Source: an uncultured bacterium
Lineage (GTDB): Bacteria; Patescibacteriota; Patescibacteriia; CAIQCM01
DNA: 64,000 nucleotides
Assembly: GCA_963708045.1 (NCBI GenBank)
Contig: OY970181.1
Coordinates: forward strand, 515,740 to 579,739
Direction of reading: 5' to 3'
Shown here: positions 5,001-61,329 of the stretch, in pieces
How the letters are laid out: each line of letters starts with the position of its first letter
Position numbering within the stretch: position 1 is the stretch's first letter
Position numbers and translations under genes: made by a program
Notes under the pieces: generated by a model
The model's input: the letters and a program-made list of their open reading frames with translations, nothing else
Database searches by the model: none
Told to the model about the DNA's origin: nothing

Positions 5001-5085
5001 AGTTGTTTATTATAACGCATTATCAAAGTTTGGGCACGTAATTATTAACTTTTAACTGTTAACTGTTAACTTTTTGGAAAATAAC

Positions 5086-5113
5086 AAAAAAGACCCAGCG
5101 TTGAGTCTTTTTT
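5086..5113 (-). terminator. intrinsic terminator hairpin downstream of lemA (aaaaaagac ... gtctttttt)
   Basis: 9-bp stem flanked by A/T tracts, so usable in either direction. Confidence 0.55.
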
Positions 5114-5129
5114 GTTATTAAACTTTTAG

Positions 5130-5681
5130 CTAAAACTGGACTTTTGGCGCTTCGCGTTCGGCGCCGGTCATTGTTTCAAAAAATTCACGAGCGGTAAACT
5201 TGAGAAGTGAGGCGATAATGTTGGTTGGAATTGATTGAATAAGGATGTTCCAGTCGCGAACATTGGCGTTGTAAAAACGGCGCGCGGCTTCAATTTTGTC
5301 TTCAGCATCGCGCAACTCCGACTGCAAACGCATAAAGTTTTCCGAAGCTTTAAGTTCGGGGTAATTTTCCGCAACCGCAAAAAGGGTTTTTAAGGTGGAG
5401 GTCAGCATATTTTCCGCGACCGCGTGCTCGGCTGGGGACTTGGCGTTCATCGCCGCGGAACGGGCGAGGGCAATATCTTCAAAGGTGGATTTTTCGTGGA
5501 CAGCGTAGCCTTTGACCGTCTCCACCATATTGGGGATAAGGTCGTAGCGGCGCTTAAGCTGAACGTCAATGTCGGACCACGAATTATCGGCGGCGTTTTT
5601 TGCGCCGATGAGTTTGTTGTAAGTCGCTACAAACCAAGCGAGAATAATAACGATGACGCCAATTACGATCCAAAGGGCCAT
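5130..5681 (-). CDS. lemA: LemA family membrane protein
   Basis: N-terminal TM helix plus the conserved LemA core (NKLI...DIDVQLKRRYDLIPN...ENYPELKA...RRFYN). Confidence 0.85.
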   Translation of the reverse strand: MALWIVIGVIVIILAWFVATYNKLIGAKNAADNSWSDIDVQLKRRYDLIPNMVETVKGYAVHEKSTFEDIALARSAAMNAKSPAEHAVAENMLTSTLKTLFAVAENYPELKASENFMRLQSELRDAEDKIEAARRFYNANVRDWNILIQSIPTNIIASLLKFTAREFFETMTGAEREAPKVQF

Positions 5682-7110: not shown

Positions 7111-7167
7111 CTTTTAACTTTTAACTATTAGGAAAGACCTAAAAGTTAACAGTTAACAGTTAACAGT
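7103..7167. repeat. heptamer-repeat palindrome: (AACTTTT)x3, spacer, (GTTAACA)x3
   Basis: Tandem 7-mers overlap the phosphohexomutase stop, and the inverse array ends 7 nt before the murI ATG. Confidence 0.8.
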
Positions 7168-7173
7168 TCGGCA

Positions 7174-9076: not shown

Positions 9077-9167
9077 CATATACCATGAACCACGTACCAT
9101 GTACCATCCACCAAGGAGTAGTTAATGGTTTGTTTTCAATGGTTCATGGTTCATGGTGCATGGTTCA
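9077..9167. repeat. heptamer-repeat palindrome: (CATGWAC)x5, AAGGAG-containing centre, (TGGTTCA)x4 ending 9 nt before the pheS ATG
   Basis: Left array 9077-9111, right array 9140-9167; the right array is in sense orientation immediately upstream of pheS, which has no SD. Confidence 0.8.
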
Positions 9168-9176
9168 TAAATAAAT

Positions 9177-13621: not shown

Positions 13622-13651
13622 AAAACACTCCGATGGCCATCGGAGTGTTTT
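13622..13651 (+). terminator. intrinsic terminator, 30-nt perfect palindrome with the core CCGATGGCCATCGG
   Basis: aaaacactccgatgg|ccatcggagtgtttt followed by a T-run; downstream of the peroxiredoxin gene. Confidence 0.75.
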
Positions 13652-13687
13652 TTATCCACACGCCAAAGAGTGGTATAATAAATAACT

Positions 13688-13969
13688 ATGTATTTTGCAA
13701 CTTCAAAAGACGTTTTATTCATTGTCCTGGCCTTTGCCGTGCTTTGGCTCGCGATCTTTCTTTCCTGGGCGCTTTATTACCTCATCTGCATCCTCAAGGA
13801 CGCGCGCGACACGGTTAATGGTATTCGCCGCGCTTCGGACGCAATCGAGTCCGCCGCCGGGCACTTTAAAGGCAAATTTGAATCGCTTCTTAACATTGTT
13901 TCGGTTATGGGCGAGGGCTTTCAAATGTTTATGAACCGCGCCGGGGGATCGGGGAAGAAAAAGAAATAA
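13688..13969 (+). CDS. hypothetical small membrane protein
   Basis: 93 aa; one or two hydrophobic helices; lysine-rich C-terminus; no known motif. Confidence 0.3.
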   Translation: MYFATSKDVLFIVLAFAVLWLAIFLSWALYYLICILKDARDTVNGIRRASDAIESAAGHFKGKFESLLNIVSVMGEGFQMFMNRAGGSGKKKK

Positions 13970-14001: not shown

Positions 14002-14028
14002 CAAGGCGTCTATTTTTTCGGATTAGAT
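14002..14028 (+). terminator. intrinsic terminator hairpin (aaatagacgcc aa ggcgtctattt)
   Basis: 11-bp stem plus a T6 run; followed by 4 tandem heptamers ATTAGAY at 14032-14059. Confidence 0.7.
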
Positions 14029-14112
14029 ATTAGTCATTAGACATTAGATATTCAACAGGGTAATGTATACCAATTATTCCTCCATCCCCACGGGCTATAA
14101 GCCATCAGCCAT

Positions 14113-22323: not shown

Positions 22324-22506
22324 ATGGAAGGACAAACAATGTCGATTGAGGCCTATTGCGTTAAGTGCAAGGCCAAGCGGGAAATGAAGAGCCCTGCAGA
22401 GGTTGAGATGAAGGGCAAGGGCGACGTTAAACGTCGCGCAATGACCGGCCTTTGCGCCGTCTGCGGCACCAAAATGTTTAAGATTTTAGGCAACAAACCA
22501 GCCTAA
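22324..22506 (+). CDS. small zinc-ribbon protein (CxxC...CxxC)
   Basis: 60 aa with paired CVKC ... CAVCG motifs; followed by the terminator at 22509-22540. Confidence 0.5.
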   Translation: MEGQTMSIEAYCVKCKAKREMKSPAEVEMKGKGDVKRRAMTGLCAVCGTKMFKILGNKPA

Positions 22507-22508
22507 CC

Positions 22509-22540
22509 CAAAATCCCTCCGAGCACTCGGAGGGATTTTG
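22509..22540 (+). terminator. intrinsic terminator (aaatccctccgag ca ctcggagggattt)
   Basis: 13-bp stem and a T-run, directly followed by TATAAT 22544-22549 and the leaderless ATG at 22558. Confidence 0.75.
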
Positions 22541-29646: not shown

Positions 29647-29681
29647 TTTAGGTATTAGGTTTTAGGTATTAGGTTTTAGGT
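29647..29681. repeat. tandem heptamers (WTTAGGT)x5
   Basis: tttaggt attaggt tttaggt attaggt tttaggt; 5 nt upstream of the 28887-29642 start on the sense strand. Confidence 0.8.
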
Positions 29682-29753
29682 ATAGAGAGATAAGAATGAT
29701 GATGTAAAATTAAGAAGACTGTTACAAACTTCTTAATTCTTAAATCTTACCTC

Positions 29754-30203
29754 TTAATTCTTTTTGTCGGAATAGCCGCCCGTTGAACCAAAACTGCCAC
29801 GTGATGTTTTTTTAATATTTTCCACCTCGTTCCATTCGGCGCGTTCTATTTTAACAAACATTCCTTGAGCAATGCGTTCGCCGCGTTCTACGGTTACGGA
29901 GTCTTTTCCAATATTCCACAGTTGGAGATGGACTTCGTCGGCGGGGCCGCAAAAATCTTGATCAATGATGCCGACCGAATTTGGCATTAGCAGATTTTTT
30001 TTGCGCGAAAGCGATGAACGCGGCGCGATCATAAACATATATCCGGGCGGCGTTGCCACGATAACATTTGCTGGTACAAGCGCGATCTCATTAGGATTTA
30101 TGACCATTGTTTTCCTGACGAGCAAATCAAACGCCACCGATCCCTCGGTTTCGTGGCGCGGCAGGGGAAGATCTTTGTCTATCCGTTTGATTTCTACGAG
30201 CAT
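29754..30203 (-). CDS. dut: dUTP diphosphatase
   Basis: dUTPase motifs RSSLSRK, GIIDQDF, GERIAQ, RGSFGSTG; start taken at the second ATG (30203) because the TGAAACA heptamer array covers the first ATG (30216-30218). Confidence 0.85.
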   Translation of the reverse strand: MLVEIKRIDKDLPLPRHETEGSVAFDLLVRKTMVINPNEIALVPANVIVATPPGYMFMIAPRSSLSRKKNLLMPNSVGIIDQDFCGPADEVHLQLWNIGKDSVTVERGERIAQGMFVKIERAEWNEVENIKKTSRGSFGSTGGYSDKKN

Positions 30204-30210
30204 GTTTTTA

Positions 30211-30291
30211 TGAAACATGAATCATGAAACATCCTCGCCGCGCTTTGCGCGGCCAAAATGATCCATGTTGTGTGCTTCATGCTTCATTATA
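30211..30291. repeat. heptamer array (TGAAWCA)x3, GC hairpin 30237-30253, degenerate inverse array, between rplA and dut
   Basis: Same architecture as the other loci; the rplA stop is at 30295. Confidence 0.7.
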
Positions 30292-30975: not shown

Positions 30976-31251
30976 ATTTTTTTATGGACCATGAACTATG
31001 GACCATGAACAATTATTTCGAGGCTCGGCCTCGAGGCTGAGCCTCGAAGATTTGCCGGTGAATTAAAGAAACGGACCGCCATGGGTCCGTCTTTGGATCT
31101 CATGACGTGGTATTAGCGAGCCGATGGACATCGGCTCTCCCACATCCGTTATGGCAATATATTAGCCCAAAGCCGTATTTTTGGCAAGTCTACCGTCATC
31201 CCAGCGATAAGCTGGGATCCAGTGATTCCTCGCAATGACAAAAACACCGCA

Positions 31252-33256: not shown

Positions 33257-33291
33257 CCACGTGCAACGTGCAATGTGCTATGTGCGACGTG
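33257..33291. repeat. tandem heptamers (CNAYGTG)x5 directly after the rplK stop
   Basis: ccacgtg caacgtg caatgtg ctatgtg cgacgtg; same unit family as the 46366-46555 array. Confidence 0.8.
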
Positions 33292-33295
33292 CCAA

Positions 33296-33724: not shown

Positions 33725-33852
33725 ATATTAGCTTGTAGATTGTAGGTTCATTAAAATTTATGAATTAGATGATGGCTTTGGAACCTCGAGAAGCGCAAGG
33801 TTTCAAACAATCATCCGTCTTCTAAATTCTAATCTCCAGGATCTAATCTCTT

Positions 33853-40071: not shown

Positions 40072-42138
<2,067 letters not shown>

Positions 42139-43134: not shown

Positions 43135-43162
43135 ACTGAATACCTAATTTCTAATTTCTAAT
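43135..43162. repeat. tandem heptamers (CTAATNT)x4
   Basis: ctaattt ctaattt ctaatat ctaatcc; same unit as the 47404-47504 arrays. Confidence 0.75.
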
Positions 43163-43206
43163 ATCTAATCCGTTTTTTTAATATCGTTCCTGCGGTAATG
43201 TCTTTA

Positions 43207-43236
43207 CCCCCTCCCCGATGGCCATCGGGGAGGGGG
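43207..43236. terminator. 30-nt perfect palindrome hairpin with the core CCGATGGCCATCGG, followed by a second C-rich hairpin at 43288-43325
   Basis: ccccctccccgatgg|ccatcggggaggggg; shares its loop-proximal 14-mer with the 13622-13651 terminator. Confidence 0.6.
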
Positions 43237-43409
43237 TAGGGGGAGTTCGTTTCGCCGTAAATAATTTTAACGTAATAAAAAAGAACTCTCCCTACCCTCC
43301 CTTTTACCAAAGGGAGGGCTAAGATTTTTCGTTTCATCTCTTCATCCTCTTTGGGAGGCGCAAAATGGTTTTATGTTGCGATGTTTTGGTTTTGTGATAT
43401 GGTCTTTGT

Positions 43410-45347: not shown

Positions 45348-46367
45348 ATGTCGCTTAAAATTATTTTTGATTTTTTAAAAAAACATTGGATCAAGTTGTC
45401 GTTTGTCGGGGGAATCTTGCTCATCGTCGTTTCACTCGCGGCTATCTTTTTTATTTTTGGCGAAAGAAAAACGGAAATTGGAAATATAACCAATGCAAAA
45501 AATGAGCCGTTGCCTTCGGCGCCAGGGGTAAAAAATTGGGTTGACCTTTATGCAGTTTCCATAGACAACCACGTTAATGCGCGTCCGGTTTCTGGATTAA
45601 ACAATGCGGAATTTGTCATTGAAGCGCCAGTTGAGGGTGGAATAAGTCGCTTCCTAGCTTTTTTTGAACGCGGAAAATCGGTTTCCGAAATTGGGCCGGT
45701 TCGCTCGGCGCGCCCATATTTTTTGGATTGGGTAATGGGCGCGGGGCCAGCGCTATTTATTCATATCGGCGGCTCGCCCGAGGCGATGGCGCGAATTGCG
45801 GCGGATCCGGTTTTGCTTGTGACTAACGCCGATGGCATTGGTGCGGCTGGCGTTTATTTTTCACGCGATTTGTCGCGTGAAGCCCCGCACAACGCCTATG
45901 TTTCTTCAAAAGACATAGAGACATTATTTTTTAAACGCAGTCCGACGCCGCGCTCGGTTGCGGGCTGGAATTTTGTTGTCGCGCCCGAAGCTTTAAAATT
46001 GGGGAGTGCTGGCGAGATAAAAATAAAATTTGGCGATCCTGCAAATAGCGTCGTTTGGAATTTTGACAAAGAGAAAAATATCTACTTGCGTTCTTCGGGC
46101 GGCAAAGCCGACAAAACGAGAGATGGGGAGGTGATTAGCGCGAAAAACATCGCCATAATTTATACCGAAGTTAAGTCAATTGATAGCGAAGACCGAAAAA
46201 AAATTCAGACAACCGGCGAAGGCACGGCTAAGGTTTACGTAAATGGAAATGAGATTGGTGGAACATGGAAAAGCGACGGCAAATCCTTGCCACGTTTTTA
46301 CGATTCTTTTGGCAACGAAATTATTTTTACCGAGGGGAATGTGTGGGTTGAGGTAATTGGCACGTAG
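45348..46367 (+). CDS. DUF3048 domain protein (YerB-like), membrane anchored
   Basis: SIDNHVNARPVSGLNNAEFVIEAPVEGGISRFLAFF matches the DUF3048 N-terminal core; N-terminal TM. Confidence 0.65.
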   Translation: MSLKIIFDFLKKHWIKLSFVGGILLIVVSLAAIFFIFGERKTEIGNITNAKNEPLPSAPGVKNWVDLYAVSIDNHVNARPVSGLNNAEFVIEAPVEGGISRFLAFFERGKSVSEIGPVRSARPYFLDWVMGAGPALFIHIGGSPEAMARIAADPVLLVTNADGIGAAGVYFSRDLSREAPHNAYVSSKDIETLFFKRSPTPRSVAGWNFVVAPEALKLGSAGEIKIKFGDPANSVVWNFDKEKNIYLRSSGGKADKTRDGEVISAKNIAIIYTEVKSIDSEDRKKIQTTGEGTAKVYVNGNEIGGTWKSDGKSLPRFYDSFGNEIIFTEGNVWVEVIGT

Positions 46368-46555
46368 CGCGTAGCACGTAGCACGTAGCGCGTGGCGCGT
46401 AGCACGTAGCACGTGGCGCGTAGCACGTAGCACGTGGCGCGTAGCACGTAGCACGTGGCGCGTAGCACGTAGCACGTGGTTTTAAAAAACAGGCTAAAGC
46501 CTGTTTTTTTCGTTTTCTACGTGCCACGTGCTACGTGCTACGCGCCATTTGGCTA
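46366..46555. repeat. 17 tandem heptamers GCRCGTR (119 bp, 21-bp super-period), terminator hairpin 46484-46509, inverse array (CYACGYG)x4-5
   Basis: Direct reading; not CRISPR because there are no spacers; convergent gene ends (DUF3048 + / prmC -). Confidence 0.9.
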
Positions 46556-47398
46556 TGTGCCAAAAAGGGCGATGCGGGGCAGGTTGGCAAGATCATTTTT
46601 TATTTCTACCATTGCGGTGGGGAAGTGGCGTTTGGCTAATTTGGGAAACGAGCTTTTTTGCGATGGGTCTATTTCACAAATAATTATGCCAGTTATTCCG
46701 CGCGCGACAATTTGGTGGAATAATTCATCGTAATATTTTAGTCCGTCCTTGCCGCCCGTGAGGGCGGTTTTTGGTTCAAAATTTTTTACGTCGGGCGGGC
46801 ATTTTTGCCAAACCCTGGTTGGTAAATAGGGGAGATTGGCGACAATAATCGCTGGTGCGTTAATTTTGATTTTTTTTGGCAGCAAGTTGGTACGTTCAAA
46901 AATTATTTTATCTTGCACGTCATTTAGCGCGGCGTTTTCTTTTGCGATTTTTAGGGCGGCTTTTGAAATGTCAGTGGCGACGACTGTTGCGCTTGGGTAA
47001 TTTTTAGCAACGGCGATCGCGATAGCGCCACTGCCGGTTCCGACGTCAATAAACGGCACGTAGCACGTAGTACGTAGTACGTTGATGGCTTCCTCCACTA
47101 GCATTTCCGTCTCTGGGCGGGGGATGAGGGTGTGTTTGTTTACAAAAAATGGCAGGCTAAAAAATTCCTTAATTCCGACGATGTAGGCGACTGGTTCGTG
47201 CTTGGCGCGGCGGGCGAGAAAGGTATGATATTTTTTTGCGGCCAAGCTTGGCATTGCGCGGTCGTCGTGCGTAAGCAGTTCTTCACGGGTAATGCCAAGC
47301 GCATGCGCAAGTAAAATTTCAGCGTCAATAGCCGCTGATTCTTTTGAAGCGCGACGGAGTTTTTTTATGCCGAAAATTTTTGCTTCTTTTATTGTCAT
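46553..47398 (-). CDS. prmC: release factor glutamine N5-methyltransferase PrmC/HemK
   Basis: SAM motif IDVGTGSGAIAIA; substrate motif present as NLPY (variant of NPPY); downstream of prfA. Confidence 0.8.
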   Translation of the reverse strand: MTIKEAKIFGIKKLRRASKESAAIDAEILLAHALGITREELLTHDDRAMPSLAAKKYHTFLARRAKHEPVAYIVGIKEFFSLPFFVNKHTLIPRPETEMLVEEAINVLRTTCYVPFIDVGTGSGAIAIAVAKNYPSATVVATDISKAALKIAKENAALNDVQDKIIFERTNLLPKKIKINAPAIIVANLPYLPTRVWQKCPPDVKNFEPKTALTGGKDGLKYYDELFHQIVARGITGIIICEIDPSQKSSFPKLAKRHFPTAMVEIKNDLANLPRIALFGT

Positions 47399-47403
47399 TG
47401 TTT

Positions 47404-47504
47404 GTTGGTAGAGATTAGAAATTAGATTTTAGAAGCTGGTAGCTCGTCTTCTAATTTCAAATCTCTAATCTCTAATCTCAAATTCACATTCTAATTCTAA
47501 AATA
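47404..47504. repeat. heptamer palindrome: (GARATTA-like)x3, centre, (TCTMAWY)x8, starting 6 nt upstream of the prmC ATG
   Basis: gagatta gaaatta gatttta ... cttctaa tttcaaa tctctaa tctctaa tctcaaa ttcacat tctaatt ctaaaat. Confidence 0.8.
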
Positions 47505-47755
47505 AAAGAGCCCCCGACGAAAGAGGCGACGTTTAACAAGGGGAGGGGGGTCTTGTTACGCACTCAATTCCGTCGGGGGAGAAAATAGGGGGCCTTGGAG
47601 TGGTTAGCTAGCGACGCTGCTGCTACAACGCGTTTTGCCTATGCAACCTTGGGCTAAAGATGGAGGTTCGGGACACCCAGGAAACCCGATAAAACCATCG
47701 TAAGCGTTTGGCGCATCCACTCCAAAGCCAAGACAAGAAAGAACGTCTAATTAAC

Positions 47756-48820
<1,065 letters not shown>

Positions 48821-48840
48821 AAAGTCATTGTAACATTAAA

Positions 48841-48931
48841 TGAAACATGAACCATGTACCACGTACCATGAACCATGAACCACGAACCACGAAACATGTA
48901 CCACGAAACACGTACCATGAAACATGTATAA
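48841..48931. repeat. 13 tandem heptamers (YGWAMCA; sense-strand reading TGKTWCR) filling the prfA upstream region
   Basis: tgaaaca tgaacca tgtacca cgtacca tgaacca tgaacca cgaacca cgaaaca tgtacca cgaaaca cgtacca tgaaaca tgtataa. Confidence 0.9.
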
Positions 48932-50331: not shown

Positions 50332-52347
50332 ATGCAGTTTAGAGAAATAAAAAACTGGAAAATAAAAACCGGCCCGTTTGTGATGGTCGGGGTAATTGTT
50401 TTTAGTATCTTTTTTTCTTTAATAAAACCCAACGTTGCTTTGGCTCATCCCGACTTGGGTTTGCATGCGGCCTCAATCGTGTGGTTAGACGAAACGCATA
50501 TTCGCGTTACCTACGATTGGTCAACTGCTGATCAAGTCTCGGATTGGGTGACAACAATCGGCGGGGCTATTACTTGGAATTCTGGAAGTTCAACCGTTTC
50601 AGTTGGTGGAGGGTGGGGAGATATACGAGGTATGCAGTGGGTGCGCCCAATTGCGGCCTCGTCGGTCACGGCTCATGCTAAATCTGCGCCGACTTATTTT
50701 ATAAATATGTATACCAATCTTCCGTCTGATTGGTATACAAATCCAAGATGGGATCCAACCCCAGGGCTTGGCACAATCTATTATGACCACCCGCGACAAT
50801 TAGTTGTAAACGGTGTTTCTTATATCGATGAAGCAAGTTGGGATGTTGGTTTGCTTGAGCGAAGTACTTGGTATGATTTTTTATTCACTGCAAGTCCGTC
50901 AGTAATTACAACATGGTCTAGTGTAGCAAATACGGGTGGGGCAACATTCAGCAAGACCGGGTCTTATGATTTAAGCACCGATGGTCGCGTGGGTGTGGGT
51001 GCTTATGGAGTTTCACCAACCGAATGGGGGACGATCGTCATTGAAGGCGAAATTTCATTACCGTCATACACCCTTACCTATACTGCCGGTGCGAACGGTT
51101 CAATTACTGGTTCCTCGCCACAAACGGTTCATCAAAATTTTGACGGCACGCAAGTTACTGCTACTCCTGCCGCGAATTACCACTTCACGAGCTGGTCCGA
51201 CAGTGTCCTTACCGCCGCGCGCACTGATTTGAATGTAGTGGGAGATATAACGGTCACCGCCAACTTTGCGATTGACACCCACACCCTCACCTACACCGCC
51301 GGCGCAAATGGTTCAGTTACCGGTACTAATCCGCAAACCATTAATCACGGCTCCGACGGTACCGCCGTCACCGCCGTTCCCAACTCGGGTTATCGCTTTG
51401 TTGATTGGTCGGATACTTCAATAATAAACCCGCGCACGGACACGAATGTGACAACCAATCTGGCTGTGACGGCTAACTTTATGGCAAACAGACGCCCTCC
51501 AAGCAGCAGTGGCTCATCGGTAGTTCTTTCGCCATCAATCACAATCCGCACACCGGCGAGCGGCGTATCATATAATGCCGACGCAATCGTTGGCCTTGAT
51601 TGGTCATCGGCCAATGGCGCCTTTACTAAATACAAAATTTATTACTCATCGGATAATGGCACAACTTATTCGGCGATTGGCGAAACAACCTCAACTTCGT
51701 TAAGTTGGACTGTTCCCGACGTCGGCACAACGCAAGGAAAAATAAAAGTTGAAGGTTATGATGCCGCGAGAACTCTGCTTGCTTCGGCAACTTCAAACGG
51801 AAACTTTGTCGTGGTCGGCGATGCAATACTGGAATCAGAAGAGGGAACACAACCAACCACAACACCGCCTGTCACCGACTCAACCGCGACCGGAACTTAT
51901 TCTCCCACTGAAGCGCTGGAAAATACTCCCGACATCAATACCGACATGAACCTCACGCTAGTCGCGCCATCACTCTGCACCTCAGGCTCACTCATTAAAG
52001 GTTCGCTTTCTTCAGTTTATTACTGCGGCGCTAATGGCAAGCGTTATGTCTTTGTGAACGACCGCGCTTACTTTAGCTGGTACCAAGACTTCTCAACCAT
52101 TAAAACTATTTCCGACGCCGACCTCGCCTTAATCCCGCTCGGGGGCAACATTACTTATCGTCCCGGCTCCCGAATGATCAAAATCCAATCCGACCCCAGA
52201 GTCTACGTTATTTCTCGTGGCGGCATCTTGCGCTGGGTTAGCTCCGAAGCCATCGCCGCCGCACTCTATGGCGCGAACTGGGCAACAATGATTGACGATG
52301 TCTCTGATGCCTTTTTTGTAAATTATACAGTTGGCGCGCCGATTTAG
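50332..52347 (+). CDS. cell-surface protein with two Listeria-Bacteroides (flg_new-type) repeats
   Basis: Duplicated HTLTYTAGANGS.TG..PQT...DGT.VTA.P...Y.F..WSD ... TANF units; signal peptide/TM at the N-terminus. Confidence 0.5.
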   Translation: MQFREIKNWKIKTGPFVMVGVIVFSIFFSLIKPNVALAHPDLGLHAASIVWLDETHIRVTYDWSTADQVSDWVTTIGGAITWNSGSSTVSVGGGWGDIRGMQWVRPIAASSVTAHAKSAPTYFINMYTNLPSDWYTNPRWDPTPGLGTIYYDHPRQLVVNGVSYIDEASWDVGLLERSTWYDFLFTASPSVITTWSSVANTGGATFSKTGSYDLSTDGRVGVGAYGVSPTEWGTIVIEGEISLPSYTLTYTAGANGSITGSSPQTVHQNFDGTQVTATPAANYHFTSWSDSVLTAARTDLNVVGDITVTANFAIDTHTLTYTAGANGSVTGTNPQTINHGSDGTAVTAVPNSGYRFVDWSDTSIINPRTDTNVTTNLAVTANFMANRRPPSSSGSSVVLSPSITIRTPASGVSYNADAIVGLDWSSANGAFTKYKIYYSSDNGTTYSAIGETTSTSLSWTVPDVGTTQGKIKVEGYDAARTLLASATSNGNFVVVGDAILESEEGTQPTTTPPVTDSTATGTYSPTEALENTPDINTDMNLTLVAPSLCTSGSLIKGSLSSVYYCGANGKRYVFVNDRAYFSWYQDFSTIKTISDADLALIPLGGNITYRPGSRMIKIQSDPRVYVISRGGILRWVSSEAIAAALYGANWATMIDDVSDAFFVNYTVGAPI

Positions 52348-52351
52348 CCGA

Positions 52352-52447
52352 ACTGTTAACTTTTAACCTTTAACTTTTAGTTAGAAAATATCTCCGTCAC
52401 ATCGGAGATATTTTAATTCGCCAAAAGTTAAAAGTTAACAGTTAAAA
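52352..52447. repeat. heptamer palindrome: (AACTKTT)x4, terminator hairpin 52385-52414, (AAAAGTT/AACAGTT)x4
   Basis: Same GTTAACA-type family as 5045-5070 and 7103-7167. Confidence 0.85.
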
Positions 52448-52484
52448 GTTAGTTAAAATTTGCATCTATGCTACAATTTAATAA

Positions 52485-53042
52485 ATGCTGACCGAACTTG
52501 CGAATGAAAAAGAGTTGGCTGAACGGGCGACGAAAGACGGTGACGCTTTTGCCGCGCTTTACGATTTTTATTTTCCAAAAATTTGGGCGTACACGATTAG
52601 GCGCGTCGGACACACGGAAACGGCTGAAGATATTGTTTCACAAATATTTTTAAAAATTACCGAAGCTTTGCCGCGCCGAAAAAATAACGCGCCCTTTGGC
52701 GCTTGGGTTTTTCGGATCGCTACAAATACAATCATTGATCATTATCGGGCAAGTGGTCGGCACCGTGAAGAAGAAATCGTTGCCGCGGAAAATATTCCCG
52801 AACGCGGTTTAGCTCCTGACGAATTTTCCGAGGCTAGGCTCGTGTTTAGAGAAATAGAAACAATCCTCGGCGAACTTCCCGAGCGCGACCGACGCATTGT
52901 TCACCTTAAATTTTTTGCCGGCTTAAGTAACGGTGAAATCGCCGTAACGGAAAAAACTAAAGAGGGGAATATAGCAATAATTGTTCATCGGGCGCTTCAA
53001 AAAATACGTAAACAGAGCAAATTTTATGGAAAACTTGAATAA
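52485..53042 (+). CDS. ECF-subfamily RNA polymerase sigma-70 factor
   Basis: Region 2 (YDFYFPKIWAYTIRRVG...AEDIVSQIFLKI) and region 4 HTH (LPERDRRIVHLKFFAGLSNGEIA); TACAAT box 7 nt before the ATG. Confidence 0.85.
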   Translation: MLTELANEKELAERATKDGDAFAALYDFYFPKIWAYTIRRVGHTETAEDIVSQIFLKITEALPRRKNNAPFGAWVFRIATNTIIDHYRASGRHREEEIVAAENIPERGLAPDEFSEARLVFREIETILGELPERDRRIVHLKFFAGLSNGEIAVTEKTKEGNIAIIVHRALQKIRKQSKFYGKLE

Positions 53043-56000
53043 TCAAGACGAAAAAAACTTAAATAGCGAAGAGGTAAAGCGTAATGAAAACACTGGCGGA
53101 GCGTTGGAAGAGATGGAGAGCAAAATCTCCATGCTTATCAACCATAATAATACGGACGCCTCAGACAAATTCCGCGAATCGTTAAAAACGCGGGTACTTG
53201 AGGCGCACGCCAAAAATAATATGCCTCGTTTTTCCGGCTTTAAGAATTTGATCGGATTTTTTTCCGCTCGCCGCTTTTCGTTTGCCATAACGATCGTTCT
53301 CTTGCTCGCGGTCGTCGGCGGTGTTTTGCTTAATGGTTATTTTGGCGGACGCGAACGGAGTATTGCTAAAATTTTTATTAATCCCGCCTACGCCGCCGAC
53401 GACTTTTCACTTGTCTCGCTTGCGGCTGATTCCGCCGGTGTTACTCCCGATTCGGTCTACAAACTCACAAGCAAAGAATCGTTTTCCACGGCCGACATTA
53501 AAGCTGGACTAAGTCTGACGCCAACGATGGAGGTCGGTGTCAAACAAACAGCGGATAAAGAATGGATGATTACGCCGAGTGAAAAATTGCCAGCCAATTC
53601 GCTTTTAAAAATTGCCCTTGCCGCGGCAATAAACGACAACGGAACAATCACGACGCGCGATTTTTCTTGGGCGTTTCAAGTTAAAGATCATTTCCGCGTT
53701 CTTAATTCGCTTCCTGGGAACGCGGCAACCTCGGTCCCGGTGAATACGGGTATAGAAGTAACTTTTAGCCATCCAAACTTAAATGGCTATGAAAAATATT
53801 TTGCCATTAGTCCCGAAGTTAAAGGACGTTTTGAATATCACGCCCGCACCGCCGTTTTTGTGCCAACCGAACCACTCAAGGCTGGTGAGCTTTATACGGT
53901 GACCATTGGCGCTGATCTGGTACTAACCGAATCCACCGAAAAATTGGGCGAAGATTATAAATTTAGTTTTGAAACGGCTAAAGAAACCAAAGACGCTGGC
54001 GGTTATGAAAATTGGTTTGGCGTTAATGAAAAAATGGTGCAATTCAGTTCCGACGAAAGTCCGTTCATTGGTGTTTATGGCGACACCAAGGCGCAAACCA
54101 CGGCTAATGTATATTCGTTTTCTTCGGCCGACGCTTTTCTTGCGGGTATAAATGAACGCAATAAATATCCGCGCTGGACGGAAAAATGGAATAATTATCA
54201 CTATGATGTTTCGGGGCTTGCCAAAGTCACGTCGTTTACGCCAAAAATTGAAACGCAAAATTACGCCAACTTCTTTGTTTTCCCGTCAAAATTGCCGATT
54301 GGTTTTTATCTCACCGAAGTCGCGTATCAAAACAAAACTTTCCAAGTCTGGATGCAGGTGAATGATTTAAACGTTTTTTACAACATTGATATTAACCACA
54401 CGCTGGTTTGGGTAAACCGGATTGGTGGCGTTTCGCCGGCTACCGAGGCGACGGTTTCGGTCGGTGATTTGGTACAAAATGTAAAAACGGACGCTAGTGG
54501 CGTGGCAACGTTTGATATTCCGGCGGCGTATCAAGATGCCAAAAGCAAATATGCCGACCAGCCGCTTTATCTAATTGTTCGCGCGGGCGCCTCAACGATG
54601 ATTACTGATTTTTATCCCGGCGGGAAAACAGCCGCCAGTCGTTGGTCATATTTTTATACCGACCGCCCGCGCTATCAATCAACCGATACGATTCATTTTT
54701 TTGCGATGACTCGGGATCGCGCGAGCGGCATCGCCTCGCCCGGAAAATACTCGGTAATTCTCCGCAAATCCGGTTGGTACGATTATTATTACAACCCGGT
54801 AAAAATTGTTGAAACCGAAGTTGCGCCGGACGCCTACGGCACAATGACGGGCGCGCTTTCGCTTGCCGATTTGCGCCCCGACTACTATGAAGTCGCGCTT
54901 ACGCTTGACGGCGAAACAATTGCGACAAGCTGGGTAAATGTTCTCCCTTATACCAAACCGGCCTACTCAATTTCGGTAACTAACGACCGCGCCGCGGCCT
55001 TCTCGGGCGAACAGATAAATTTTACCGCGACGGCGAAATTTTTTGACGACACGCCGGCCGCCGGAATTAAAATGAAGGTCGTAGACGAATTAGGGATAAA
55101 GATTGGCTCTTTCACGACCGACGAACAAGGACAAATAACTTTTTCTTCAACCCAAGATTACGACGGAACAAAATATTGGCCGCAATGGAAGTATTTTACC
55201 GTTAGTCCAGAGTCGTCGGAGCTTGGCGACATTAGCGGCTCGGCAAACGGCGCTTGGTACGGTCCGCGCGTTTACGGAACAAGCGAAGTTAAGTATCCGG
55301 AAAAAGGCCGCGCCGAATTAAAGATCAAAGTTCGTAACGTTGATATTAACAAAATTAATTTCCCAAATAACGTGCAATGGGATGAAGATTGGCAAGGGTC
55401 GGATCCGGCTGCGGGCATAAATATTTCTGGCGAAGTAATAAAGATTACTTACAACAAGGTTGAAACTGGTACAGCTTATGACTTCATCAACAAAACGTCT
55501 TATAAAACTTATCGTTACGATCGGGTGGAAACAAAAGTTGACACGCTTTCGCTTGTAACTGGCGCGGACGGTATGGCGCGTTACAGTCGCGCGGTTGAAC
55601 CGAACACTTTTTACAACATAAATTATAAAATCAGCGACGCGGCGCATCGCACCGAAGCGCACAACGACGGCTTCTATTATTATGACGGCAATACTTATTA
55701 TCGCGATTATTTCTCTTACGGGGAAAATGCGCAACCGACAATTGAATTTAACACGAGCGACCGTCTGTATTCGCTCGGCGACAAGGTTAAAGCGACGCTT
55801 TCGCTTAACGCTAAGCCGGTTTCCATGGCGCAAACTGACCGCATTCTTTTTGCCAAATACCAAAACGGTCTAAAGAGCTTTGTGGTGCAAGGGAGCCCAG
55901 TTTATGAATTTAATTTTTCCGAAAGCGATGTTCCTAACGTTCAGCTTTTTGCCGCCTGGTGGGATGGAAAAAATTATCACACGGCGCGAACCGACGGCTG

Positions 56001-58620
56001 GTGGGGGATGAGCGACGGCGGCGCGAAATATAAATATACTGATCGCGAACTCACGATTGACGCCGCTTTTGATAAAACGACGTATGCGCCAGGGAGCGAC
56101 GCTAAATTTTCAGTAACGGTTAAAGACAAGAATGGTCGTCCGGTCGCCGCCGCTCTAAATCTTAATTTGGTTGACGAAGCGTATTACGCGATTGCGAATA
56201 GCTCGGCAAATCCGCTCCAAAGCATCTACACGCCGCAATATTCGGGAATCATTGATTCGGCGGAAACGCAAGAACCGCCGCCTTCGGCCACGGCCGGCGG
56301 TGCGGAACGTGGTGGCTGTTTTGCCCCTGGCACGATGATTACGATGGCTGATGGTAGCAAAAAGGCGATTGAAAAAGTTAAAGTTGGCGACAAGGTGGCG
56401 ACACTCGCGAATCCGCTTAACGCCGATGTTGTAACAGGAACAGTTGGCGCGGTTTTTGAGCATACCGCGAATAAAATGATTTCCGTTAACAACGGACTTC
56501 TCAAGGCTACACCCGAACATATGATCTATGCGAGCGGCACTTTTAAAACCGCTGGCGAAATTGCGGTTGGAGATGTACTCCTTGGACTTAACGGGAAAAA
56601 GACGGTTGTCACTTCGGTTAAAGTTGTTTTTGAAAAAATTTCCGTCTACAATTTGCGTGTTGATCCATATCACACCTTTATTGCAAACGGTATCTATGTT
56701 CACAATGACAAGGACGGCGCCGTGCGTCAGAACTTTGTTGATGTCGCGCTTTTTCGCACGGTCACAACCGATAGCGCAGGCAAAGCGACAGTTGACTTTA
56801 AGTTGCCGGATAACGTTACTTCTTGGCGGCTTACGACACAGGCGATTGGTGCTAATCTTTCAGTCGGAATGTCCACACAAAAAATAAAAACCACCTTGCC
56901 GGCTTTTGTTGACGTTACCATTGGTAAGGATTATCTCGTAGGCGATCAGGTTGTTGCTAAACTGCGTTCGTTTGGTACGAACCTTACAGCCACGGACGCG
57001 GTTTCTTACGCTGTTACTTCGGAAGGGCTTGGCAACGCCTCATTTTCTTTTGCAACCGAAGGCAAAGCGTACCGTCCGACCGAAGTTAATCTGCCACCGC
57101 TCACATCGGGAAATTTCAACGTTACCTATTCAATGAAAAGCCAAAAAGGAAATGACGCCGTGCTTTTGCCGCTAAACGTTTCCAAGTCGTTTTTGCGGAT
57201 CAATAAAATCCTTTCATCCACTGATGTTTCGCCCGGGGTAAAGTTTTCTGCGCCTGGCGCAACTGACTCCGTAAAAATTACTTTTGCCGACGCGAGTTCA
57301 ATGAAATTATATCGGCCGCTTTCGGAACTTAGCTGGAGTTGGGGAAAACGCGTTGACCAAACGCTCGCGCATTCGCTTGCCGCCGATTTGCTTCTTAAAT
57401 ACTTTAAAGAAGATTGGCACGAAAATACTTTTGACGGCAGCGCGTATCAGCAAGCTGATGGCGGCATCGCGATTTTGCCTTACGGTTCTTCGGATATGGA
57501 TCTTTCGGCGCGTCTCGCGGCTTTAGCGCCGGAAAAATTTAGCGTCTCGGCGTTACGTCAATATTTTATGGCGGAAATTGATTCCAAGAATGCGACGCCC
57601 GAGACGGTGACTAACGCGCTTTTGGGTTTGGCGTCGCTCGGTGATCCGGTTTTGCCGCGGTTAGAGCTCTGGAAAGATAGAACTGATCTGACAATAGAAA
57701 GCCGCATGCGCGTTGCTCTCGCTCTTTACAAGGTCGGCGCGAACGAAGATGCGCGGATGATTTATAACGATGTGCTAAAGAGCGGCGAAAGTCGCGGTGC
57801 GTATTATCTCTTGTCCGGCAAAGACGAGAACGAAACATTACTGCGCACGGCCTTTTTGGGCGAACTTGCGGCCGCGCTTAATATGCCGGAACGCGACGCG
57901 CTCTGGGCTTACGTTACTGATCATAAATATGATAAAAAAATTGAAGTCCTGACCAACCTTGAAGATTTGTCGTTTGTTATGTTGGCTATCCCAACACTTA
58001 CGCCCGGTCCCTCTAAAGTCGCTTACGAACTTAAGGGAATGAAAAATGAAATTGATCTGAATGGCTGGGGTCAAAAAGTAATCAGACTTCAGGCGTCGGA
58101 ACTTGATAAATTGAACATCACCTCGGTGGAAGGAAAAATCAGCGCGGCGGTTTCTGCGGATGCTTCTATCACCGAAGTTGATCTGGTCGCGAACAAGGAC
58201 GTTTCCATTACCCGATCATATTCGGTGGTCGGCGGCGCCGATAATACAACCGACTTTAAGGACAATGATATTATTCGTGTGACGATTGACGTAAAAATTT
58301 CGCGCAATTCGCCGAGTCGTAATTATCAGGTGACGGACATTCTTCCGGCTGGCTTAATTTCGGCGACAAATGTTTATGACGCGTATCGTCCTTATGACAA
58401 CTATTGGAGCAACCCGTTTGATGTAAACGGCCAGCTTGTTTCCTTTAATGTTTGGAAGTACGGCGATCCGGATAAATATGGAAATTATTCGGAGACGATT
58501 CATTATTACGCCCGAGTAAAAACAAAAGGCAGTTACAAGGCCGAGCCGGCGATTATTCAGGCCTTTTCTGACCCAGGAACGATTAATTATTCTTCGGCTG
58601 GAATCGTAACCGTTAAATGA
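53026..58620 (+). CDS. anti-sigma-like giant membrane protein with alpha-2-macroglobulin-like MG domains and an internal Hint domain
   Basis: ATG 53026 overlaps the sigma gene by 17 nt (the track starts at TTG 52981); ~85-aa cytoplasmic N-region then one TM helix (FAITIVLLLAVVGGVLL); YFYTDRPRYQSTDTIHFFAMTRD resembles the A2M MG-domain motif TDRPIYRPGxTVHF; Hint domain at nt 56317-56706; ends with TGA. Confidence 0.55.
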   Translation: MENLNNQDEKNLNSEEVKRNENTGGALEEMESKISMLINHNNTDASDKFRESLKTRVLEAHAKNNMPRFSGFKNLIGFFSARRFSFAITIVLLLAVVGGVLLNGYFGGRERSIAKIFINPAYAADDFSLVSLAADSAGVTPDSVYKLTSKESFSTADIKAGLSLTPTMEVGVKQTADKEWMITPSEKLPANSLLKIALAAAINDNGTITTRDFSWAFQVKDHFRVLNSLPGNAATSVPVNTGIEVTFSHPNLNGYEKYFAISPEVKGRFEYHARTAVFVPTEPLKAGELYTVTIGADLVLTESTEKLGEDYKFSFETAKETKDAGGYENWFGVNEKMVQFSSDESPFIGVYGDTKAQTTANVYSFSSADAFLAGINERNKYPRWTEKWNNYHYDVSGLAKVTSFTPKIETQNYANFFVFPSKLPIGFYLTEVAYQNKTFQVWMQVNDLNVFYNIDINHTLVWVNRIGGVSPATEATVSVGDLVQNVKTDASGVATFDIPAAYQDAKSKYADQPLYLIVRAGASTMITDFYPGGKTAASRWSYFYTDRPRYQSTDTIHFFAMTRDRASGIASPGKYSVILRKSGWYDYYYNPVKIVETEVAPDAYGTMTGALSLADLRPDYYEVALTLDGETIATSWVNVLPYTKPAYSISVTNDRAAAFSGEQINFTATAKFFDDTPAAGIKMKVVDELGIKIGSFTTDEQGQITFSSTQDYDGTKYWPQWKYFTVSPESSELGDISGSANGAWYGPRVYGTSEVKYPEKGRAELKIKVRNVDINKINFPNNVQWDEDWQGSDPAAGINISGEVIKITYNKVETGTAYDFINKTSYKTYRYDRVETKVDTLSLVTGADGMARYSRAVEPNTFYNINYKISDAAHRTEAHNDGFYYYDGNTYYRDYFSYGENAQPTIEFNTSDRLYSLGDKVKATLSLNAKPVSMAQTDRILFAKYQNGLKSFVVQGSPVYEFNFSESDVPNVQLFAAWWDGKNYHTARTDGWWGMSDGGAKYKYTDRELTIDAAFDKTTYAPGSDAKFSVTVKDKNGRPVAAALNLNLVDEAYYAIANSSANPLQSIYTPQYSGIIDSAETQEPPPSATAGGAERGGCFAPGTMITMADGSKKAIEKVKVGDKVATLANPLNADVVTGTVGAVFEHTANKMISVNNGLLKATPEHMIYASGTFKTAGEIAVGDVLLGLNGKKTVVTSVKVVFEKISVYNLRVDPYHTFIANGIYVHNDKDGAVRQNFVDVALFRTVTTDSAGKATVDFKLPDNVTSWRLTTQAIGANLSVGMSTQKIKTTLPAFVDVTIGKDYLVGDQVVAKLRSFGTNLTATDAVSYAVTSEGLGNASFSFATEGKAYRPTEVNLPPLTSGNFNVTYSMKSQKGNDAVLLPLNVSKSFLRINKILSSTDVSPGVKFSAPGATDSVKITFADASSMKLYRPLSELSWSWGKRVDQTLAHSLAADLLLKYFKEDWHENTFDGSAYQQADGGIAILPYGSSDMDLSARLAALAPEKFSVSALRQYFMAEIDSKNATPETVTNALLGLASLGDPVLPRLELWKDRTDLTIESRMRVALALYKVGANEDARMIYNDVLKSGESRGAYYLLSGKDENETLLRTAFLGELAAALNMPERDALWAYVTDHKYDKKIEVLTNLEDLSFVMLAIPTLTPGPSKVAYELKGMKNEIDLNGWGQKVIRLQASELDKLNITSVEGKISAAVSADASITEVDLVANKDVSITRSYSVVGGADNTTDFKDNDIIRVTIDVKISRNSPSRNYQVTDILPAGLISATNVYDAYRPYDNYWSNPFDVNGQLVSFNVWKYGDPDKYGNYSETIHYYARVKTKGSYKAEPAIIQAFSDPGTINYSSAGIVTVK
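56317..56706 (+). other. Hint / mini-intein-like domain (130 aa) embedded in the giant protein
   Basis: Block A CFAPGTMITMADGS, block B TPEH, block G HTFIANGIYVHN; the residue after the terminal Asn is Asp, not Cys/Ser/Thr. Confidence 0.6.
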
Positions 58621-59513
58621 CAAAGAAAAGAACAATAATTTTGTTTTTTGCCGCCGTCGCTTTTTTTGCGGCGGCGGCTTTGGGATTTTTGTTTTTTAAA
58701 AAAACAGAACAACCAATAATGCAAACGGCAAAAAATAATTATCAACGCATTCCGATTCTGGATATTTTTTACGATAAGGAAAATTTTGTTAATGCCGAGG
58801 CAATGGCCAAAGACACAAAGACCGAAGTTGGCGTAAAAGCCGTGGTCGTGCCGCACCACCTGCTCGCATCGCGCCTTGTTGCCGATGCCCTTGCGCGCGC
58901 CAAGGGGAGTAATTATTCGCGGATTGTGATTGTGGGGCCGAATCACGACGACCGCGGCGCTGATGTTGTTACTTCGTCGGCGATTGAATACGATACGCCG
59001 GTCGGCGTGGTTTTGCCCGACGAAGAAAAAATAAATTTGTTTAGAACAGCTTTTGCTTGCCGCGCGGGCAGTGACGTATTTTTAGGTGAACATTCCATTG
59101 GTGCCATCGTGCCGTTTGTGGCCGAAGCGTTTCCAAACGTAAAAATAATTCCCATCATTATTTCGTCACACGCGGGTGACCTTGATGCTCGTAAACTCGC
59201 AGATTGGCTTCGTCGTCTTCCGGCAGATACGCTTGTGATTTTTTCCGTTGATTTTTCTCACTATAAGACCGAGGCAGAGGCCGATGTTTATGACCAAGAA
59301 ACTGCGTCCGCGCTTATGAGTCGTGACAATTCTAAAATTGAAGGCTGGGGGAATGAACACATTGACTCGCCGTTTACAATCGCGACGATGTTGCTTTATG
59401 CCGAAAAAATCGGCGCCAATATCAACATTGTCGCCAACAAAAACGCCAACGATTTTCTGTCACAAAAAGTAGATTCAACAACGAGCTATTTTGAGATAGT
59501 GGCGAGCAGATAA
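58617..59513 (+). CDS. Memo-like protein (MEMO1 / AmmeMemoRadiSam system protein B family) with an N-terminal membrane anchor
   Basis: VVPHH...IVIVGPNHD...GEHSIGAIVPFV...FSVDFSHY match the Memo family metal-site motifs; ATGA overlap with the preceding gene. Confidence 0.6.
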   Translation: MTKKRTIILFFAAVAFFAAAALGFLFFKKTEQPIMQTAKNNYQRIPILDIFYDKENFVNAEAMAKDTKTEVGVKAVVVPHHLLASRLVADALARAKGSNYSRIVIVGPNHDDRGADVVTSSAIEYDTPVGVVLPDEEKINLFRTAFACRAGSDVFLGEHSIGAIVPFVAEAFPNVKIIPIIISSHAGDLDARKLADWLRRLPADTLVIFSVDFSHYKTEAEADVYDQETASALMSRDNSKIEGWGNEHIDSPFTIATMLLYAEKIGANINIVANKNANDFLSQKVDSTTSYFEIVASR

Positions 59514-59522
59514 TGGACCATG

Positions 59523-59603
59523 TACCACGCACCATGAACCACACTAATGAGTAGTTATTGGTTTATGGTACATGGTTCATGTTTTATGGTTCATGACAAA
59601 ACG
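59523..59603. repeat. heptamer palindrome (ATGNACC)x4, centre, (TGGTWYA)x5 at the start of the rpsB upstream region
   Basis: Left array 59523-59550, right array 59569-59603. Confidence 0.8.
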
Positions 59604-61168: not shown

Positions 61169-61232
61169 ACAATACTCATACTTTATTAACAAAAACCGTT
61201 CCGTTTGGGGCGGTTTTTGTGATATACTCCGA

Positions 61233-61308
61233 ATGGACAATGAACCATGAACCATGAACCATGAACCATTGACTAGTCATTGGTGCGTGGTGTGTGGTAC
61301 GTGGTTCA
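61233..61308. repeat. heptamer palindrome (ATGAACC)x5, SpeI-palindrome centre, (TGGTNNG/TGGTTCA)x4 ending 21 nt before the gap ATG
   Basis: Left array 61233-61267, right array 61281-61308; the tsf terminator hairpin at 61191-61218 precedes it. Confidence 0.85.
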
Positions 61309-61329
61309 TAAATTTAACCCTAAAACAAT

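Follow-up and report, generated by a model that had tools for sequence, protein, structure and literature searches.

Mirrored heptanucleotide-repeat modules in a Patescibacteria-like genome as candidate small palindromic dispersed elements

Tandem repeats of a seven-nucleotide unit have been known in bacteria since 1990, and their origin and function have not been established. The short tandemly repeated repetitive (STRR) sequences of cyanobacteria, with the units CCCCAGT, TTGGTCA and CAACAGT, were reportedly described in that year by Mazel. Here we analyse heptamer arrays in a 64-kb stretch of contig OY970181.1 (the window, by which we mean the whole stretch), taking as prototype a pair of arrays in the spacer between the gene of a DUF3048 protein and prmC.

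Heptanucleotide repeats are the most abundant class of long simple sequence repeats (LSSRs) in most repeat-rich genomes, and a DNA polymerase contact of about 7 nt has been proposed to favour their slippage (Mrázek et al. 2007, as cited in PMC4692102 and PMC4679880). This polymerase-footprint idea is the only published explanation of the 7-nt unit that we found. The STRRs of Calothrix and Nostoc and the GGGAATC repeats of Xanthomonas are examples of the class, with no mechanism or function established for them. In the Xanthomonas GGGAATC and Nostoc GGGGAYT repeats, four units are the commonest size; related species share the sites, with repeats of varying sequence and length, and inverted pairs occur in some cases (Rehm et al. 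2015, PMC4692102). The TAACTGA repeats of marine Beggiatoaceae, some cyanobacteria and Bacteroidetes lie just upstream of starts without ribosome-binding sites (MacGregor 2015, PMC4679880). On heptamer repeats in the Patescibacteria, or Candidate Phyla Radiation (CPR), the literature searched held nothing specific.

The elements of the window belong to this known bacterial LSSR/STRR phenomenon, in a new lineage and a new architecture: 7-nt tandem units are over-represented, mostly intergenic, and drawn from few families spread over many loci. Judged by its protein matches, the host is a Patescibacteria/CPR bacterium, its best RF-1 and PrmC matches being to Magasanik-, Kerfeld-, Moran- and Uhrbacteria at only 50–56% identity. 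The first-pass annotation had named the cyanobacterial STRRs as the closest parallel, in a host otherwise unlike cyanobacteria, and both points hold. With moderate confidence, we read the prototype as one of several clade-specific families of small palindromic dispersed elements with heptamer-array arms, resembling REPINs (hairpin-forming pairs of repetitive extragenic palindromic, REP, sequences) or miniature inverted-repeat transposable elements (MITEs). In the literature searched, the families, their inverse arms of about four units, their gene-like conservation at orthologous positions, their concerted change of unit and the in-frame arrays in PrmC appear to be undescribed. Tiny genomes, short spacers, co-existing families, a layout of about four units, a hairpin and about four inverse units, orthologous modules that can be tracked and in-frame arrays make this CPR clade an unusually clean comparative system.

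Period-7 arrays and the prototype locus

Tandem Repeats Finder (TRF) detected 23 non-redundant period-7 arrays of at least three copies in the window. With the same settings, it found 0, 1, 0 and 2 arrays at periods 3, 4, 5 and 6, respectively, and none at periods 8–15. A strict period scan, which yielded no runs in shuffles or at periods 5, 6 and 8–13, found 11 at period 7. The phenomenon is thus specific to period 7, as the first-pass annotation had supposed, and every heptamer array that it had listed is present, the prototype with a shift of about 6 nt (46360–46477 by TRF for 46366–46484). The arrays are outside open reading frames (ORFs) in 21 of 23 cases. About 39 spacers measure 40 nt or more, and arrays are present in about 16 of them, which is about 40% rather than the majority claimed before.

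Four unit families, AACTKTT (5), ATGAACC (5), AGATTAG (4) and GCACGTR (4), account for 18 of the 23 arrays, and pairs of similar units number 31, whereas 500 simulations of the null gave 7.2 on average and never more than 21. Such sharing of units speaks against an account in which the arrays are purely local microsatellites, produced in place by slippage with a 7-nt bias, without dispersal or function and with mirroring by template switching at hairpins; we consider this account rather unlikely. Array size bears on it too. Across 162 sources, period-7 copy number peaks at 4–4.5 copies (30–32 nt; 71 arrays compared with 34 and 36 in the adjacent bins), unlike periods 6 and 9, which show a monotonic size decay, and the typical arm has about four units, or about 30 nt. 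A mode of this kind is not what slippage in place would give. In its favour, several arrays have 14- or 21-nt super-periods, which indicate duplicated blocks of two or three units, and single arms have expanded to about 17, 12 and 18 units. Slipped-strand expansion, one of the mechanisms proposed by the first-pass annotation, does therefore operate.

The prototype spacer separates two convergent genes, that of the DUF3048 protein (45348–46367, + strand) and prmC (46553–47398, − strand), and contains three features:

46360–46477: DUF3048-proximal arm, 16.9 copies of GCACGTA/GCGCGTA/GCGCGTG at period 7 with 83% matches (TRF) and a 21-nt super-period
46484–46510: bidirectional intrinsic terminator, hairpin aaaaaacaggctaaagcctgttttttt (A6 - caggc taaa gcctg - T7)
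46517–46561: prmC-proximal arm, inverse units ctacgtg ccacgtg ctacgtg ctacgcg followed by older, decayed ccatttg gctatgt

TRF also describes the long arm as 5.7 copies of a 21-nt period with 96% matches (46361–46479) and finds 4.1 copies of the inverse ctacgtg/ccacgtg units at 46519–46547, with decay outward to 46561. The first repeat units of the long arm supply the TAG stop of the DUF3048 gene, and the prmC stop (46553–46555) lies inside the decayed end of the prmC-proximal arm.

We compared the window with its syntenic relatives L081 and L163 (sister species, 83–86% nucleotide identity), L164, L165 and L162, and with a genus-level set around dnaE (L082, L083, L084 and L087); period 7 is dominant in all of them. 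In the orthologous spacer, L163 has GCACGTG-type arms of about three units on each side of the terminator, and L081, in which the terminator is conserved, has CAAATRG-type units on each side; the window keeps decayed ccatttg units outside its CACGTG units. Because L163 carries CACGTRG-type units on both sides and its sister L081 carries CAAATRG-type units on both sides, the arms have changed unit in concert. As L163 has only about three units at this site, the 17-unit arm of the window (copy number as assembled) is an expansion specific to the lineage of the window, probably by slippage.

Mirrored modules and their conservation among relatives

Adjacent arrays tend to be inverse copies of each other. 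Pairs are closer as inverse than as direct repeats in seven of eight cases in the window, in 22 of 25 in the clade and in 18 of 26 in other loci, most of them CPR. The mirroring seen by the first-pass annotation, which it placed around a central GC hairpin, is thus borne out, with two corrections: the centre is not always a GC hairpin, and several arrays (14020–14052, 33257–33293, 43143–43171 and 48840–48926) are single-armed. Mirrored modules are predicted to fold with z scores of −4 to −11 relative to dinucleotide shuffles and with a 1x1 mismatch every 7 bp, in line with the long, periodically bulged hairpins anticipated earlier. RNAalifold did not recover the long stem from an alignment of 11 modules, in which the tandem units make the register ambiguous, and arm pairing was judged instead by direct comparison of consensus units. 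Rfam gave no hits at gathering scores; the sub-threshold matches were only to eukaryotic miRNA precursors, that is, to generic long hairpins.

The ATGAAC family has the architecture 5'-[ATGAAnC]x4, variable GC hairpin, AAATG, [nTTCATG]x4-3', with one polarity in 11 of 11 modules from six genomes and a shared variant unit, ACGCAAC/GTTGCGT. A profile of these modules matches 18 places, all but one in this clade. Paralogous copies that share internal variant units and polarity are hard to derive by slippage in place. As in REP/REPIN elements, inverted pairs of short repeats form a predicted hairpin and are dispersed extragenically. The arrays of the window other than the prototype and the one inside prmC include the following:

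61233–61309, + strand: ATGAAC-family module in the 5' untranslated region (UTR) of gap, about 5 nt after an extended −10 box, tgtgatatact (61218–61228); z = −7.5
59514–59594, + strand: ATGAAC-family module 3' of a Memo-like gene and upstream of the rpsB leader; z = −4.0
9077–9168, + strand: ATGAAC-family module between an M50 protease gene and pheS, ending 8 nt before the pheS ATG; z = −4.4
30210–30287: ATGAAC-family module with a central GC hairpin (30237–30253), between rplA and a dUTPase gene; its variant unit GTTGYGT is common to the gap modules of L081 and L164
30983–31010: half-module, TATGGACCATGAAC twice (period 14), 7 nt upstream of rplA and adjoining a GC hairpin (31018–31047)
48840–48926: single arm of 12.4 ATGAACC units with a 21-nt super-period, between the L31 terminator and the RF-1 start
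47408–47500: mirrored AGATTAG...CTAATCT module ending 5–9 nt upstream of the prmC start; z = −5.2; orthologous modules in five of six species
33734–33850: degenerate mirrored TAGATTG...CTAATCT module between nusG and rplK; z = −1.7
43143–43171, + strand: single arm of 3.7 CTAATTT units after a hypothetical gene; L081 has a full mirrored module, CTAATAT...ATTAGAT, at this position
14020–14112, + strand: 4.4 ATTAGAY units (14020–14052) and decayed ACGYGCY units (14088–14112) abutting the dnaE ATG
7102–7168, + strand: mirrored module, 4.1 AACTTTT units, centre and 4.1 TAACAGT units, between phosphomannomutase and racemase genes; a T.C mismatch every 7 bp; z = −6.2
52351–52451, + strand: mirrored module, 4.1 AACTTTT units, terminator-like hairpin (52388–52414) and 4.1 AAAAGTT units, upstream of a sigma-factor gene; z = −10.8
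5045–5071: single arm of 3.9 TTAACTG units beside a bidirectional terminator (5078–5119)
29647–29762: 5.1 TTAGGTA units (period 14, 100% matches) and 4.7 TTCTTAA units, weakly mirrored, between the dUTPase gene and a hypothetical gene; z = +0.7
33257–33293: single array of 4.9 ACGTGCA units (GCACGTR family) directly 3' of rplK
40388–40413, − strand: 3.7 TTTGCGA units read in frame in gyrB; class membership uncertain, and a chance match is possible

A hairpin with a T-tract is found at the prototype centre, at 52388–52414 and at 5078–5119; neither the arrays themselves nor most module centres have one. The first-pass annotation had offered bidirectional termination as one possible role, and in those three places (the prototype, 52351–52451 and 5045–5119) the arrays do enclose or adjoin a canonical hairpin and T-tract. 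That the modules are extended bidirectional terminators or attenuators is nonetheless very improbable: the T-tract is missing from most centres, the gap module follows a conserved promoter and so belongs to a 5' UTR, other modules lie between co-directional genes of core operons (pheS, rplK-rplA and prfA-prmC) or inside ORFs, and a terminator at the centre would end transcription with the second arm still uncopied.

Several modules are conserved at orthologous positions. The spacer between the EF-Ts gene and gap has a module in four species (the window, L081, L164 and L165) with a single layout: terminator, extended −10 box (tgtgatata), about 5–10 nt, ATGAAC-family module, an A/U-rich stretch without a Shine-Dalgarno sequence, and ATG. 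With the module downstream of the −10 box, the gap mRNA should carry the hairpin at its 5' end. The gap modules of L081 and L164 are 86% identical, compared with 72–81% for the flanking genes, and carry the odd units ATAAAGC and GTTRCGT at equal positions; the L25 module is 75% identical and its flanking genes 63–68%. Conservation on a par with that of genes also argues against free slippage in place. The GAATTAA/GAGATAA module of the FtsW/L25 spacer is present in L081, L163, L164 and L165 and missing from the window. Its presence in outgroups makes it ancestral, so the window has lost it by a clean 87-nt deletion; clean indels of whole modules measure 87 nt and about 118 nt.

The three samples L165, L166 and L167 are 99.97% identical, with three single-nucleotide polymorphisms and no gaps over about ten arrays. 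Copy number thus does not vary among these three strains, which the first-pass annotation had not anticipated, and the absence of indels, even in an array of 18 copies, is a further difficulty for slippage in place. In L165 and L166 (289–416), one arm of the gap module has 18.3 units and the other 4.6, which parallels the 17 and 4–5 units of the prototype; the 18.3-unit array is identical in these two samples, whose contigs cover it. Contingency (phase-variation) loci were rejected as a description of the arrays: there is no length change in the three strains, the flanking genes are housekeeping genes (pheS, dnaE, rplK/rplA, prfA/prmC and rpsB/tsf/gap) and the arrays within ORFs are in frame.

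The same comparisons bear on whether the arrays are an artefact of assembly or sequencing. Short-read assemblers can mis-size long tandem arrays, and a 1.46 kb Logan contig that carries this PrmC breaks off inside the long array, about 100 nt beyond the prmC stop. However, homologous modules recur at orthologous positions in independent assemblies (L081, L163, L164 and L165) and arrays are identical in the three samples L165, L166 and L167, which leaves the artefact raised by the first-pass annotation scarcely credible.

Some sites have kept an array and changed its unit. Upstream of prmC, the unit differs by species (AGATTAG, GAATTAA or ATGRACN), and before the dnaE ATG, L083 and L084 have intact ACGYGCY units, L087 has four perfect ACTCCCT units and L082 has none. 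This turnover at fixed sites favours local slippage, as does a possible local seed: a unique GGCGCGTAGC at the end of the L081 DUF3048 gene matches the unit of the window. Complementary arms that persist despite the change of unit, gene-like conservation and the absence of length variation in three strains suggest, all the same, that 'simple slippage' is only part of the explanation. In their behaviour, the modules resemble conserved, dispersed families and not freely slipping microsatellites.

Unit replacement also bears on a binding protein, which the first-pass annotation had listed among its candidates. The arrays would then be sites for a protein with a footprint of about 7 nt per domain or subunit (cold-shock or S1-type oligonucleotide-binding folds acting on RNA or single-stranded DNA, or a double-stranded DNA binder), for which about four units would be optimal. 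The fixed 7-nt register and modal size agree with this, as does conservation of the arms above that of neighbouring non-coding DNA. Many modules end 4–10 nt before starts in a genome nearly without Shine-Dalgarno sequences (a Shine-Dalgarno-like 4-mer precedes only 7 of the 59 genes of the window), and a similar proposal exists for the TAACTGA repeats of Beggiatoaceae (PMC4679880). A single binder is, however, hard to reconcile with at least six unrelated unit families in both orientations in one genome, with replacement of the unit at orthologous sites and with arrays that are translated at several sites in PrmC. The analysis turned up no candidate binder, and we hold this explanation to be quite improbable.

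How dispersed elements of this kind might arise and persist can be outlined as follows. Modules or arms would be copied to new sites as blocks rather than grown 7 nt at a time; the arms would stay complementary through selection for pairing or through strand switching templated by the hairpin; and slippage during replication, one to three units at a time, would make long arms such as the 17-unit prototype. Loss of whole modules by clean deletion is observed. The modules are probably transcribed as UTR hairpins. Co-transcribed arms could form long, periodically mismatched hairpins at mRNA 5' ends, between cistrons and around terminators, where they would most plausibly protect or process mRNA ends, like REP or Correia elements. 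The position and conservation of the modules, together with the known protection or processing of bacterial mRNAs by stem-loops of this type, point to such an RNA-level role as a 5'-terminal or intercistronic hairpin.

Several observations weigh against these proposals. Pfam searches of the 64-kb window found no transposase, reverse transcriptase or gene like that of the REP-associated tyrosine transposase (RAYT), and the window has no autonomous insertion sequence with ends that match the modules. The arms could act as the terminal inverted repeats of a MITE, but no target-site duplication of the kind expected of one is visible at the two clean module indels and boundaries, so that mobility follows only from the pattern of copies. 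High identity among arrays of one family is in part a product of their repetitiveness; outright replacement of the unit family at fixed sites (upstream of prmC and dnaE) is not explained by simple descent; and the GGCGCGTAGC of L081 hints at local seeding of the prototype array. An RNA hairpin role is doubtful at the prototype itself, because the internal terminator should end each transcript before the second arm, and sense and antisense fold energies, a proxy for RNA-level selection on G.U pairs, show no consistent asymmetry (7 versus 5, with two ties).

A more far-reaching possibility is that a dedicated mechanism with a 7-nt register, either a trans-acting templated polymerase or reverse transcriptase or a hairpin-recognising transposase, installs and corrects arms of about four units as blocks, with the hairpins co-opted as intercistronic and 5'-terminal processing or stabilising sites that pass short-leader mRNAs to a nearly leaderless translation system in which Shine-Dalgarno sequences are largely missing. 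We regard this as speculative and distinctly unlikely. If true, it would solve the 35-year-old STRR puzzle as regards both mechanism and function.

Arrays translated inside PrmC

The first-pass annotation had held that a strict 7-nt period cannot be coding, and prmC contradicts it:

47056–47082, − strand: 3.9 GCACGTA units in prmC, in frame, encoding NVLRTTCYVP directly before the IDVGTGSG motif

The ORF of the window encodes 281 amino acids with intact PrmC_N and methyltransferase domains. Among 55 intact PrmC ORFs (an RF-1 panel, the window and L081), 14 contain in-frame period-7 arrays, one to four in each, with unrelated units at about five recurrent sites. All 14 come from loci that are labelled CPR or are probably mislabelled. 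In L006, L009, L022 and L036, labelled 'uncultured Gammaproteobacteria' or 'Bdellovibrionales', RF-1 and PrmC are CPR-like, and L022 also shares sequence with the Moranbacteria locus L028; the taxonomic labels of these four are probably wrong.

The site used in the window carries other units in L162, L165, L017, L022, L028, L031, L045 and L006. In the clade of the window, the unit varies, with ACGTRCT in the window, ACGAGCT in L165 and 3.7 perfect copies of CTACTCA in L162, while the segment from PRPETE to DxGTGSG stays constant at 19 amino acids. In L031, a single unit would have brought TGA into frame, and it is mutated to TTA, a change that shows selection for continued translation across the array. 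We infer that these are permissive sites of the protein. Because each single step of 7 nt would pass through a frameshifted intermediate, in-frame arrays could not have been built in such steps, which is one more obstacle to local slippage. Taken with the intergenic copies, these cases indicate that the modules can be accommodated, and at times are conserved, in UTRs, between cistrons and around terminators as well as in permissive loops of proteins.

Two other arrangements occur in PrmC. Paired in-frame arrays in the prmC of two Moranbacteria (L028, 11400–11432 with 11638–11668; L068, 8765–8793 with 9118–9140) are inverse complements enclosing 200–350 nt of coding sequence, which suggests either long-range mRNA pairing or the copying in of inverse arms as pairs. 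In L081, L163 and L164, GC-rich palindromes stand in frame at PrmC site B, where heptamer arrays sit in others, and stretch the segment from 19 to 27–61 amino acids.

Short-read assemblies break at these elements, and CPR proteins gain periodic peptides from them; both effects matter for the annotation of CPR metagenome-assembled genomes (MAGs).

Window context, wider distribution and known systems

The window is 90% coding, and its genes are ordinary housekeeping genes: radA, pheST, dnaE, thrS, miaA, gatB, nusG-rplK-rplA and gyrB, with ftsW, rplY, prfA-prmC, rpmE and rpsB-tsf-gap. ARAGORN found no tRNA or tmRNA in it, and scans for consensus promoters and terminators gave counts no higher than in shuffles and were not used. 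A TATAAT-like box ends 6–10 nt before many ATGs (for example 5000, 5719, 13688, 45348, 42254, 50332 and 52485), which, with the rarity of Shine-Dalgarno sequences, suggests widespread leaderless or very-short-leader mRNAs. A role of the heptamer units as an all-frame stop signal was dropped: many intergenic units carry TAA, TAG or TGA, and several do not.

Four other features of the window are recorded here. A block of about 250 nt upstream of prmC (47507–47755, between prmC and prfA) is non-coding and conserved in three species (about 12130–12378 in L081 and 5654–5900 in L163); Rfam gave no match to it, not even at a permissive threshold, and it may represent a structured RNA or leader that has not been described. 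Another class of small repeats comprises the GC-rich palindromes ccctccc-loop-gggaggg and cgtcatcccagc...gggatcc...cgcaatgac (43207–43236, 43288–43323 and 31194–31239). An uncalled ORF of about 60 codons in the spacer between miaA and an S51 peptidase gene (22330–22520) has CxxC...CxxC motifs (MEGQTMSIEAYCVKCKAK...CAVCGTKMFKILG) and probably encodes a small zinc-ribbon protein. A 1879-aa ORF (52981–58620) is alpha-2-macroglobulin-like, with a HINT/pretoxin-HINT domain inserted at residues 1113–1243 that is possibly an intein-like insert; the region that includes it (50332–59513) has no counterpart in the syntenic L081.

Period 7 was the commonest in both control panels: the panel of 1.19 Mb had 93 arrays at period 7, 31 at period 6 and 30 at period 9, and that of 1.11 Mb had 94, 46 and 25, respectively. 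The heptamer excess in many unrelated bacteria, seen in the literature and in both panels, is a point for local slippage. The spread is patchy, with at least two period-7 arrays in 37 of the 162 sources. One non-CPR locus, L023 (Bacillota MAG Ch29; 5489–5630 and 13641–13776), has eight period-7 arrays in 21 kb, which are direct mosaics of different units and not inverse pairs. In the S2/EF-Ts spacer of L081 (16120–16152), 4.4 CTAAACC units correspond to the plant-type telomere unit (CCCTAAA), probably by coincidence.

Known systems resemble these elements in different respects. Eukaryotic foldback (FB) transposons have long inverted arms made of short tandem repeats; they are of kilobase scale, and there is no evidence of a relationship. 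Rickettsia palindromic elements (RPEs), reportedly described by Ogata et al. in 2000 as non-periodic palindromes of 100–150 nt, are likewise small repeats in frame in conserved genes of a reduced-genome bacterium, tolerated at permissive surface sites, whereas the inserts here are heptamer arrays of 20–35 nt. Small intragenic repeats in bacteria have been reviewed (PMC2229807).

REP/REPIN sequences, bacterial interspersed mosaic elements (BIMEs) and bacterial MITEs such as Correia and RUP are also imperfect palindromes of about 70–100 nt dispersed in operon spacers or near terminators (PMC3116915, PMC2229807). Lineage-specific families and clean loss are common to them and the present modules too, as, probably, is transcription as hairpins (PMC3116915, PMC2229807). 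They differ from the present modules in that the arms here are internally periodic, with no RAYT or transposase partner in the window and no target-site duplication.

The TAACTGA repeats of Beggiatoaceae similarly lie a few nucleotides upstream of starts without canonical ribosome-binding sites, and the window has a TTAACTG/TAACAGT family of its own; they are, however, almost only direct (one indirect set among 170) and of a single family (PMC4679880), whereas those described here are predominantly inverse and of several families. The Xanthomonas and Nostoc repeats match in their mode of about four units, their orthologous intergenic sites and the inverted pairing of some, with stem-loops or cruciforms (PMC4692102), but all belong to one G-rich family that could form G-quadruplexes. 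The units described here are not G-rich, come in many families and form inverse pairs as a rule.

The arrays are not cyanobacterial STRRs in the strict sense, given the Patescibacteria-like host and the units GCACGTA, ATGAACC, AGATTAG, AACTKTT and others; TAACAGT is one mismatch from the STRR unit CAACAGT, which may be coincidence. With the heptanucleotide LSSR/STRR class as a whole they share the over-represented, mostly intergenic 7-nt tandem units and the few families at many loci, and they depart from it in their Patescibacteria host, their several unrelated families with other units, their inverse pairs of about four units around a hairpin and their in-frame copies.

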